A stretch of 64,000 bases of DNA from Promethearchaeota archaeon (GTDB lineage Archaea; Asgardarchaeota; Lokiarchaeia; Sigyniarchaeales; SOKP01). The notes below the pieces were generated by a model. The model searched no databases. It was not told the origin of the DNA and saw only the letters and a program-made list of their open reading frames with translations. Positions 48,824-58,795 of this stretch are shown here, piece by piece. The stretch covers positions 1 through 64,000 of the forward strand of contig JAUVXW010000001.1 of assembly GCA_030603385.1 (NCBI GenBank), in the 5' to 3' direction. The translations under genes and the position numbers were made by a program. How positions within the stretch are numbered: the first letter of the stretch is position 1; the number at the start of each line of letters is the position of its first letter.

Positions 48824-51800
48824 TTAGCCATGAATATATATTTGCTGTATTACTAGTAGAATAATAAAGCTAATAAATAAAATAAAAAGAGTGAGAAGGG
48901 TATAAAACCTCCACTTTACTGCTATTTTTTCTCTTTCCTCCTTTCTGCGTAAATATACTAAAATTATGGATCCTACTACAGATATTGATATTAGAATTGT
49001 GGCTATATACCAAACAGGATCTATATATATAAATAAAAATGCGATAACACTACCCCAACCATAAGATAAACGTAATACTCTTCTTTTAAATATTACATCT
49101 GGATCACTTGATTTTGAAGAAGGAACAACTAGGATCAAAAATGCAAAAATCGCAATCGTCAACAATGTCGGATGAACTGGACCTAACAAAATACTTAAAT
49201 ATAGTTCGGATAGAAGAATGCCAAGAAATACCGCTAAACAAGCGCTAAATAGTATCCAAATCACTTTGTAATGAGCCTTTAAAAAGTTAAAGAATATTCT
49301 GAACGCTTGATTTATCAGTTGCTTGATTTCTCTAAAGAATTTAACAAGAATATCAACAAATTTGTTGAAAAGTTCACGTAATTCTTCTAATAAAAATACA
49401 AAAGGATAAATTAGAATCATTAAAATAACTAAAGCAGGTATAATCTGCCAAAATTGAGATAATTCAGATATAATTAAACTTGATAATGAAAATATCGCAG
49501 CCCAAAAAGCGAATGCTGTTAAAGAATGCTTTCTAAAAGGCTTAACTATTATCCCTAAGAAAAATATAAAGTTTAACGCGGCAACACTTAGATTTAATAG
49601 AAGAGTGGTGTTTGGAACAAGTCCTAACAGTATGAAAATATCGATTGATAACAAAAGACCAATTGTTAGAAATGAAGCTTTTCTAAGAGTCACTAAGGAT
49701 TTTTCTTTCACCGTTCCTATGTATTTGTCAATATACGTGAAGACAAACAAGATAATAGACGAAAAAATAAATAGATTAAGTAGATGTACAGGATCTGAGG
49801 TTACAAAGTAAATTGGCCAACTGATAAAATTAAAATATGAAATAGATATAAGATAGAATCTAAGTCGCCTTTTATGTGAAACAATATATTCCCAAAAATC
49901 CAATATTTTGAATAAATATGCTGTCTCAAGGATTAAAATAAAAAATATGAGCGGTATTGACGTAATTAATAAAGTGATAAGGTAAGTAGTATAGAGCCAG
50001 GTTGTTGTAAAGGTTATTATAAAAATCCAAGACATTATTCTAAGATAATTAGAAATTCTTCCTAAAAATTTCAGAATGTAAACATCGATTATCATTAAAA
50101 TGTGAACTGTAATGCTAAGGTTTAAGAATATTAATGTAAGTGGGACATTAAACGAAATTAGCACTTGGAACAGGGGAAGAACTAAACTTATATAGAAAAA
50201 CGTTCCTAAAACCTGTGTCATTTGGGATCTTCTTTTTTTAATAGATTCTACTCTATTTGGATATAATTGGCTCAGTGAAGCAAAAAATGAATAATTCGTA
50301 TAAAATTGCATCAAGATAAATATTAGTATTTCAAAACTTAGTAAGATTGGATATTGTACGACATACTGACTTAGAATAAAAACGATCATCAATGTAGTTA
50401 TAAAAAAGCTAATAGTATGGATAAACTGAGCATAACCTTTCTTAATTCTCTTTATAGAATAAATATCTAATAATGTAAATGCAAAAAGGATCAACTGAGA
50501 TACAAGAATGCTTTCGAAAATTCCTGTAAATTCAATCATTAACCCGTACATTAATAAACTGATCTCAAAATATAGAAGTATTATGATTGATGAAACAGAT
50601 TTAGTTATGAATTTAGGATGTTTTATTTCAAAGAATAAAACATTAAGATTTTTAGCTAGAGTAAACAAGAAACACGTTTCAATTAAAATAAGTAGGGAAA
50701 TCGTGAAATAATTTACTATATTAAAGATATTGAACATACTTATTAAATATGTTGCTGTAAAGACCATTATAAAAATCCAAGACACAGTTTTTAGATAACT
50801 AGTAACTTTTCCTAAAAATTTCACACTATAAGCATCTATTATCATTAGAACATAAACCGAAACACTTAAGCTTAAAAATATTAATTGAGGTTCAACATTA
50901 AATAGAGTTAGCGCTTGGAACAGAACAAGTACCAAATTTATATAGAAGCATGTTCCTAAAACGTGTGTCATCTGGGATCTTCTTTTTCTAATCGATTCCG
51001 TTTTATTTGGATAAAATTGGCTAAATGAAGCAAAAAAAGAATAACTTGTATAGAATTGCATCAAGATAAATACTAGTACTTCTAAGCTTAGTAAGATTGG
51101 ATATTGTGCGACATACTGATTTAGAATAAAAAAGGTCATTAATGTAATTACAAGAAAGCTAATAGTATGGATAAATTGGGCATAATTTTTCTTGATTTTC
51201 TTTAAAGAATAGATATCTAATAATGTTAAAGCAAAAAATACCAATTGAGATACAAGAATGCTTTCGAAAATTCCTGTAAATTCAATCATTAACCCAAACA
51301 TTAGGAAACTAATTTCAAAATATAATATTATTATAAGAAACGAAAATGCTCTTGAGAGGAACTTAGGTTTTTTTACTTCAAAAAATAGTGAATTAAAGTA
51401 TTTTATTGTTTTAAAGCAGAAACATGTCTCGATTAAAATAATAGAAATTAATGAGAAGAAATTTAATATATTAAATAAATTAAAGATGATGATCCAATTA
51501 ATGGCGAAGAAACCTTGAAATACTGATAATAGAATAACCTCAATTGAAGATTTCAATCCCGTATCAATTCTGATAAAAATGTAGCTTGAAATAAATAATA
51601 ACAGAAAAGAATTTTGAAAAAGTAATAAAAAATAGCTAATCCCTTCCAGTTCTTCAAAGAGCATTAGAATTCCATTAGTGATCATATCTCCCAAATAAAA
51701 TGAGCCTGAAATAAATAAGATGTAGAATAACACAACCCGTAAATTGGAAATTGCTTTTTTTGAAATATCTAAATGAGAAAGAAAATAGAGGGAACTTTGA

Positions 51801-58795: not shown

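Follow-up and report, generated by a model that had tools for sequence, protein, structure and literature searches.

How can a single polypeptide be built almost entirely of membrane-spanning helices on a scale of about one hundred, and to what use might an archaeal cell put it? The question is raised by a locus of a Promethearchaeota archaeon (Lokiarchaeia, order Sigyniarchaeales), contained in the first 64,000 nucleotides of contig JAUVXW010000001.1 (assembly GCA_030603385.1), hereafter the window, where an open reading frame (ORF) at 48824..58795 on the minus strand encodes what an earlier, sequence-only reading had taken for a 3,323-amino-acid membrane protein. The analysis reported here shows that the gene encodes a genuine, selected, order-specific and modular polytopic membrane protein, the orthologue of which is transcribed in a cultured relative.

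An intact gene under purifying selection

One intact ORF of 3,323 codons plus stop, starting with ATG, was confirmed at this position; it occurs in one copy in the window genome, and its 9.97 kb of open frame sit in DNA of about 25% G+C (24-30% locally). Orthologous frames, encoding 2,068-4,920 amino acids, were intact in all 40 loci fetched from other genomes, three of these 40 genomes being single-contig assemblies. The ratio of nonsynonymous to synonymous substitution rates (dN/dS) against three orthologues was 0.30, 0.23 and 0.17 over the whole protein, and 0.13-0.30 over its conserved central part (the hub, see below), so that purifying selection is present. As for expression, the orthologue of Promethearchaeum syntrophicum MK-D1, DSAG12_00898, is transcribed at 152 reads per kilobase per million (RPKM), with values of 203-317 for its neighbours (Imachi et al. 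2020, Supplementary Table 3, PMC7015854). In one metatranscriptome, which belongs to the same study whose other runs contain the window's DNA, contigs of 159, 952 and 460 nucleotides map to the hub only, at about 90-95% identity; they derive from a close relative and provide weak evidence for transcription. Three other RNA runs contained almost no query words, which is no evidence of absence.

Membrane topology

Leu, Ile and Phe account for 46% of the protein's residues, the four charged residues Asp, Glu, Lys and Arg together only 11%, and Kyte-Doolittle averaging over 19 residues yields 89 hydropathy peaks at a threshold of at least 1.6 and 66 at a threshold of at least 2.0. AlphaFold2 (AF2) models of residues 340-1300 and 1300-2350 (mean predicted local distance difference test score, pLDDT, 80.2 and 79.8, respectively) are essentially all-helical, comprising 69 helices, 59-64 of them hydrophobic enough to span the membrane, and one short beta-hairpin. 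When the DSSP helices of these models (residues 340-2350) were joined to the hydropathy peaks at both ends, the resulting model had 105 transmembrane (TM) helices, and the predicted number of membrane crossings is accordingly about 105. The distribution of charge in this model is uneven: 204 Lys and Arg residues fall in the 53 inside loops versus 10 in the 53 outside loops, the same cytoplasmic face carrying 80 Asp and Glu, and at no point along the chain does an outside loop exceed a flanking inside loop in basic residues. This unbroken parity required a single adjustment, namely that the weakly hydrophobic and highly conserved helix 1750-1767 be counted as a span. Inside loops average about 20 residues and are strongly basic, outside loops total 509 residues over 53 (a mean of just under 10), and since the longest loop of all, on the inside, has 43 residues, the protein holds no soluble domain. 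The sequence-only reading was thus right in describing a chain of nearly all TM helices with short basic loops and no soluble domain, and its estimate by eye of about 90-100 helices proved right or slightly low; the high helix count holds both by hydropathy (66-89) and in the model (105).

Repeated arms around a conserved hub

Family alignments, together with a hub tree annotated by segment length, were used to delimit the segments of complete orthologues, which we refer to as N-domain, arm A, hub-bearing middle, arm B and C tail (Table 1). Both arms are made of repeats. In chunked BLASTP, residues 489-886 align with 731-1135 at 43-47% identity (E to 5e-62) and residues 2327-2823 with 2584-3071 at 45-68% identity (E to 2e-105). 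The profile-profile self-comparison, for which 130-residue pieces were run against the family profile with hhalign, gave clear repeat matches scoring 92-304 against a maximum of 30 in the reversed-profile control, with periods of about 250 and about 125-130 residues in arm A (scores up to 196) and of about 250 residues in arm B (up to 304). The unit of about 125 residues corresponds to four helices and the module of about 250 residues to eight. Self-BLAST of the full chain returned the identity hit only, the repeats being visible solely by chunked BLAST and hhalign, and a comparison of arm A with arm B scored 35-37, a weak match barely over the control maximum. The two internal duplications of about 250 residues that had been noticed in the sequence are therefore both real, the first with a period of about 125 residues underneath, and the suggestion that the protein grew by multi-helix modules is supported and can be extended to 4-TM units, 8-TM modules and classes of arm length.

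Arm length classes across orthologues are often about 125-130 or about 250 residues apart, and on the hub tree arm A switches between about 740 and about 985 residues at least five times inside one family. Relative to most members of the protein family, the window protein has one additional module in each arm (residues ~650-900 and ~2580-2820). The youngest pair of copies, residues 2437-2677 and 2687-2927 of arm B, shows a synonymous divergence (dS) of 0.58 and a dN/dS of 0.31, which implies that both copies are retained under selection. Taken together, the number of arm units varies by tandem duplication, loss and probably recombination, around an N-domain and a C tail of fixed length and a hub-bearing region that is far less variable. 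Recombination is also the likely origin of the C-terminal third of the window protein, because identity to the nearest orthologue (L039) falls from 82-99% up to residue ~2200 to 61-68% beyond it, dS to the same orthologue is 0.10 before this point and 0.7-0.8 after it, and the sampled proteins include none that closely resembles the window arm from there on; exchange with an unsampled allele, rather than relaxed selection, would account for this pattern.

In seven loci of three genera (L010, L012, L015, L016, L018, L023 and L026) the N-domain is a separate ORF of about 315-360 codons (8 TM), followed by a main ORF of about 2,540-2,750 codons; the stop of the former overlaps or abuts the start of the latter, and a GGAGG-like motif precedes the start at some of the junctions. 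Judging from these junctions, the split form is a translationally coupled two-gene arrangement, and the N-domain is therefore an autonomous unit.

The hub is the best conserved part of the protein, with family members sharing the residue of the window protein at roughly 50-60% of positions, and it is rich in invariant Trp, Tyr, Pro, Gly, Asn and Ser residues lying mostly at the cytoplasmic interface. Its signature is tripartite: an amphipathic interfacial helix rich in Trp (W1733, W1737, W1740, G1743, W1744 and W1747), the weakly hydrophobic helix 1750-1767 already mentioned, which bears P1751 and N1754 and must span for the loop parity to hold, and a Gly-rich outside loop with the only beta-hairpin of the model. 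The motif W..SW..W..GW..W..LP..N, which defines the giant family, is present in the window protein, as are the other traits of the family, i.e. repeat arms of 4-TM and 8-TM periodicity, more than 2,000 residues and hardly any sequence outside the membrane. The 69 most conserved positions are distributed over inside loops (27), outside loops (6) and helices (36), those in helices being skewed to the inner leaflet; both the excess of inside over outside positions and this skew indicate that the conserved surface faces the cytoplasm.

A second class of conserved residues is buried. Ionisable side chains lie within the helices of most modules (K291, E517, D597, E637, K1337, R1500, E2456, E2494, H2898 and D3052), and they are kept to a high degree: K291 in 100% of the members that have the N-domain in the same chain, E517 as an acidic residue in 88%, E637 in 88%, K1337 in 96%, R1500 as a basic residue in 98%, E2456 in 82%, the mid-membrane E2494 in 93%, H2898 in 93% and D3052 in 90%. 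The duplicated modules of arm B retain such charges as well (E2706 and E2744).

Distribution and orthologues in cultured species

A word-indexed search retrieved 91 clusters of proteins of 1,872-3,754 residues and 31-86% identity, all of them unnamed and without Pfam domains. When the 550-residue hub was used as query, 115 of 400 genomes of the phylum matched, all in the window's order. A hub profile was run against 332 genomes, each at least 80% complete; it matched 94 of 117 in the window's taxonomic family, 9 of the 11 from the family to which the cultured species belong, and both genomes of a third family, and elsewhere 1 of roughly 200 genomes gave one match of 26 bits. The latter, a 1,302-residue protein (G328), has a large soluble domain and was discarded as spurious TM similarity. 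Among 1.84 billion representative proteins the same profile retrieved 70 at E <= 0.001, all but two being giants or fragments of giants; the two weak exceptions, a histidine kinase (P0157) and a TMEM175-like protein (P0154), were likewise set aside as spurious TM similarity, and P0156, considered as a 'minimal' form, turned out to be a fragment of a divergent member. As far as these searches reach, the family is confined to one Asgard order, that containing P. syntrophicum, 'Candidatus Lokiarchaeum ossiferum' and 'Ca. Harpocratesius repetitus'. Within the window's taxonomic family, some lineages appear to have lost the gene: near-complete genomes lacking a hub match are found in genera g4, g7, g10 and most of g11, and they include eight of 91-99% completeness (G151, G162, G163, G166, G168, G170, G174 and G175).

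Most genomes carry one copy of the giant gene. Orthologues in cultured or closed Lokiarchaeia are all annotated as 'hypothetical protein', and comprise one of 3,940 residues in P. syntrophicum MK-D1 (QEE15075.1, the product of DSAG12_00898), one of 4,296 residues in 'Ca. H. repetitus' (MCF2139232.1) and two paralogues in L. ossiferum, NEF87_002906 / UYP46621.1 (3,146 residues; locus L036, G138:C1:3423000-3442999) and NEF87_003094 / UYP46809.1 (4,905 residues; locus L035, G138:C1:3662500-3682499). Like the window protein they match the hub profile (E 1e-215 to 1e-248, at a hub identity of 26-30%) and show the order N-domain, arm A, hub, arm B and C tail. They differ in the length of their arms (783-1,304 residues for arm A and 817-2,069 for arm B, versus 961 and 900 in the window protein), in their gene neighbours and, in the case of L. 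ossiferum, in having two paralogues versus the single copy of the window genome. No paper naming the locus tags or accessions of these orthologues was found in the literature, and searches on Asgard archaea combined with giant, Piezo or largest protein returned nothing relevant.

Searches for known families and folds

The protein had been called uncharacterised, and every comparison agreed with that description, no known family being assigned by Pfam, NCBIfam, PDB profiles, Foldseek or VIA. Pfam searches of the whole protein (E <= 1) and of 41 hub segments (E <= 0.05) yielded no family, and NCBIfam gave no match. Profile searches of the PDB returned only two designed transmembrane-helix proteins for the hub (E 0.014) and nothing at E <= 10 for arm A, and a search of the ESM Atlas with a homologue gave only hits below 0.9. 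At the level of structure, Foldseek found nothing in the PDB at E <= 0.001 (best E 0.027 for the hub model and 0.003 for the arm model, with TM-scores of about 0.1), and VIA-align against 48,161 representative chains gave best Z values of 9.4 and 10.8, both to a Bro1 domain and both under the noise level of about 13 for helical models; as both AF2 models exceed 400 residues, domain-level fold matches could be missed. The top Foldseek and VIA rows of both models consist mostly of soluble alpha/alpha repeat proteins (SKI3, CTR9, separase, Bro1 and designed toroids) and generic helix bundles, and no transporter fold stood out among them.

Gene neighbourhood

Directly upstream of the giant gene lies a GH4 glycosidase gene (Table 1), an arrangement shared by 18 of the 30 loci of the window's taxonomic family (L002-L028 and L039), in which the GH4 proteins are 62-99% identical; in several of the 12 remaining loci the upstream flank is too short to judge. 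GH4 is more conserved than the giant gene. In the family that includes the cultured species the two are not adjacent, and because the synteny is confined to one family GH4 is probably no functional partner. A gene for a Liv-type binding protein follows the giant gene in its closest relatives only. The window's copy, a solute-binding protein encoded at 47208-48629 on the minus strand, is 32-60% identical to its counterparts in close relatives, versus 53-89% for the giant protein, which suggests that this downstream gene is either fast-evolving or has been replaced by a non-orthologous one. Farther along the same strand (41723-43147), a 474-residue protein made up entirely of HEAT repeats is encoded between Liv ABC transporter genes and the gene of an AMP-binding enzyme, and looks ordinary.

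In the other lineages the neighbours are different. Promethearchaeum has flotillin/SPFH and an amidohydrolase at this place, Harpocratesius has GH13 and a PhoU-like gene, and L. ossiferum has either GNAT and HisD or a PlsC-like protein and PadR. Flotillin/SPFH proteins are scaffolds of membrane microdomains. The flotillin/SPFH (Band 7) gene, at L037:2207-3439 on the plus strand, stands 243-287 nucleotides upstream of the giant gene and on the same strand in MK-D1 and its congeners, an adjacency not kept in other genera.

Table 1. Segments of the giant protein and its upstream neighbour in the window (helix counts are those of the topology model).
Feature	Residues	Window position	Strand	Remarks
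Whole coding sequence		48824..58795	-	3,323 residues plus stop; modelled 105 TM helices, N-terminus inside, C-terminus outside
N-domain	1-339	57800..58795 (covers residues 1-332)	-	8 TM, then basic loop of 36 residues; 318-351 residues in orthologues
Arm A segment	340-1300		-	961 residues; 596-1,304 across orthologues
Arm A repeat region	~475-1225	55121..57373	-	About six units of ~125 residues (4 TM each), arranged as ~250-residue (8-TM) modules
Extra arm-A module	~650-900	56096..56848	-	Present in only 10-30% of family members
Middle with hub	1301-2200		-	Mostly 826-1,100 residues across orthologues
Conserved hub	1551-2100	52496..54145	-	About TM48-68; ~20 helices
Hub signature	1731-1782	53450..53605	-	Three parts
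Arm B segment	2201-3100		-	900 residues; 492-2,069 across complete orthologues
Arm B repeat region	~2218-3080	49556..52144	-	~250-residue (8-TM) modules with conserved buried Glu/Asp/His
Extra arm-B module	~2580-2820	50336..51058	-	In about 6% of family members
Mosaic C-terminal third	from ~2200	48827..52195	-	Recombinant-looking arm
Conserved C-terminal region	3081-3323	48827..49555	-	About 8 TM
C tail	3101-3323		-	207-253 residues in nearly all complete orthologues
GH4 glycosidase		59030..60298	-	Upstream neighbour; same strand, directly upstream

A possible scaffold within the membrane and its alternatives

The explanation that we favour, tentatively and at somewhat less than an even chance, is that of an in-membrane helical-repeat scaffold or organiser, a 'transmembrane alpha-solenoid' whose cytoplasmic hub would serve as an assembly or partner site and whose inner face is cationic. 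The sequence-only reading had guessed at a membrane-shaping, scaffolding or mechanosensory protein, and any such role would still be conjectural. Solenoid-like packing is suggested by the all-helical AF2 models (pLDDT about 80) and by top fold rows consisting mostly of alpha/alpha repeats. The helices would pack as a row of antiparallel hairpins, giving rise to a long in-plane ribbon or plate able to act as membrane scaffold or organiser, with the arms setting the size of the membrane footprint. The surface of the hub that faces the cytoplasm, i.e. the Trp-rich interfacial helix and neighbouring residues, would provide a fixed site for assembly or partner binding, and the excess of Lys and Arg over Asp and Glu on the cytoplasmic side (204 versus 80) could hold anionic lipids or cytosolic partners. 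It is tempting to go further and to speculate that a single, lineage-specific chain of more than 100 helices founds a new membrane architecture, a 'transmembrane solenoid' that would mechanically shape, stiffen or partition the membrane of Lokiarchaeia (e.g. in their long actin-supported protrusions) or sense its deformation, although we regard this bolder version as doubtful.

Several observations weigh against a scaffold. The global geometry of the AF2 models is uncertain (predicted TM-scores, pTM, of 0.48-0.57), and the matches to solenoid folds are all below significance (Foldseek E of at least 3e-3 with TM-scores of about 0.1; VIA Z of at most 10.8). No conserved operon partner was found across the lineages, so that no neighbour names a partner, and the absence of the gene from some near-complete genomes of the same taxonomic family means that it is not indispensable. 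Above all, conserved ionisable residues buried in the membrane are uncommon where the role of a protein is purely structural, and they point to the handling of ions or substrates; they are the main observation that a scaffold leaves unexplained.

The acidic ones among these residues would find a place in a Piezo-like mechanosensitive channel, in which the 4-TM arms were force-collecting blades and the hub, probably oligomeric, an ion pore gated by tension or curvature. Long arms of four-helix units of about 125 residues do recall the nine transmembrane helical units (THUs) of the Piezo blade (PMC12377734), and the weak conserved helix 1750-1767, beside a Gly-rich outside loop with a beta-hairpin, could be pore-loop-like. 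We nevertheless hold such a channel to be unlikely, for the protein has no extracellular cap and no loop longer than 43 residues, its hub lies in mid-chain and not at the C-terminus, no Piezo Pfam domain was found, and the invariant residues are turned to the cytoplasmic side instead of bordering an evident path through the middle of the membrane.

The same buried Glu, Asp, Lys and His residues could alternatively constitute an ion- or proton-coupled array, either as a lateral charge relay, analogous to the chain of antiporter-like subunits in Mrp and complex I, or as a cation or substrate site. Their presence in the TM cores of most modules, their retention when modules were duplicated and the kinks or breaks of several AF2 helices are all in line with this proposal, which we none the less judge distinctly unlikely: the charges are few, with only about one for every 4-8 helices, similarity to antiporter-like subunits in sequence or fold does not go beyond noise, and no genes for energy-coupling partners are conserved nearby.

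A role in lipid handling or membrane biogenesis, be it as a scramblase or flippase, as a corral for lipid domains or as a platform for lipid enzymes, appears to us improbable, in spite of the huge lipid-exposed surface and of the conserved amphipathic Trp-rich helix on the side of the inner leaflet. The neighbours that would support it, flotillin/SPFH in Promethearchaeum and a PlsC-type acyltransferase in L. ossiferum, belong each to a single lineage and are not conserved across lineages, and the Foldseek and VIA searches revealed no resemblance to known scramblase or flippase folds. Finally, that the gene is non-functional (a frame open by chance or in decay, a chimera of the assembly or a gene of a mobile element) has next to no probability and can be ruled out. 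AT-rich DNA does favour the codons for Phe, Ile, Leu, Tyr, Asn and Lys, which alone look 'hydrophobic', but stop codons are AT-rich too, so that a frame of 3,323 codons at about 25% G+C cannot be chance, and the frame is moreover intact in 40 genomes, among them the three single-contig assemblies, kept by purifying selection, obedient to the positive-inside rule without a break, transcribed in MK-D1 and single-copy with conserved synteny.

Significance

We know of no characterised protein with close to 100 membrane passes in one chain, with the proviso that larger cases were not searched for in the literature. Piezo, often cited among the largest, has 38 helices (PMC12377734). The giant family of Lokiarchaeia, belonging to no known sequence family or fold by the comparisons made here, appears to be undescribed, and a chain of about 105 passes poses the problem of how it is inserted, folded and used. 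The order in which the family occurs includes cultured species with elaborate and dynamic membrane protrusions; those species possess the gene, it is transcribed in MK-D1, and there is a public proteome of L. ossiferum (PXD074767, cited in PMC13716822), all of which makes its function directly testable. The arms offer, in addition, a natural series, as orthologues from about 2,070 to 4,920 residues differ by whole 4- or 8-helix units. Should the transmembrane-solenoid reading be true, cultured archaea related to eukaryotes would possess in this protein a membrane-remodelling device specific to their lineage.

Comparison with known systems

Antiporter-like subunits of the Mrp/complex I type have a Proton_antipo_M-type fold, marked by inverted 5-TM repeats with broken helices and by conserved mid-membrane Lys/Glu. 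Such domains gave no Pfam hit, and the only fold matches were generic three-helix VIA alignments to NuoK/ND4L- and MrpF-type chains at a Z of about 8, within noise; conserved buried charges do occur in the giant protein. Soluble solenoids of TPR/HEAT type (SKI3, CTR9, Bro1 and designed toroids), none of whose matches is significant, share with the AF2 models their stacked antiparallel helical hairpins and a variable number of repeats. They are water-soluble, whereas the helices of the giant protein are hydrophobic (one of them weakly), of membrane-spanning length and arranged according to the positive-inside rule.

To our knowledge, Piezo is the only well-studied precedent for arms of repeated four-helix units. 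Piezo1 and Piezo2 have 38 TM helices, made up of nine 4-TM THUs and a pore module that lies at the C-terminus and bears a cap (PMC12377734). The comparison with Piezo drawn by the sequence-only reading is one of architecture only. A blade of 4-TM units of Piezo type may have a counterpart in the four-helix period of about 125 residues in arm A and in the 8-TM modules of both arms, homology or structural equivalence to THUs being at most conjectural. The C-terminal pore module (outer helix, large extracellular cap and inner helix) and the intracellular beam have none, loops being at most 43 residues long and the conserved module central (residues 1551-2100); the Pfam domains PIEZO and Piezo_RRas_bdg were absent from the scans of the protein and of its hub segments; and no Piezo chain occurred among the top 50 of either Foldseek or the VIA-wide search for either model, both models being above 400 residues, so that domain matches could be missed. 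Both proteins are thus very large and polytopic, with long arms of repeated four-helix units. Piezo has 38 helices, with one blade preceding a C-terminal pore, whereas the giant protein is modelled with about 105, in two arms that flank a central hub, is devoid of cap, beam and soluble domain, bears no sequence or Pfam relationship to Piezo, and belongs to one order of archaea.

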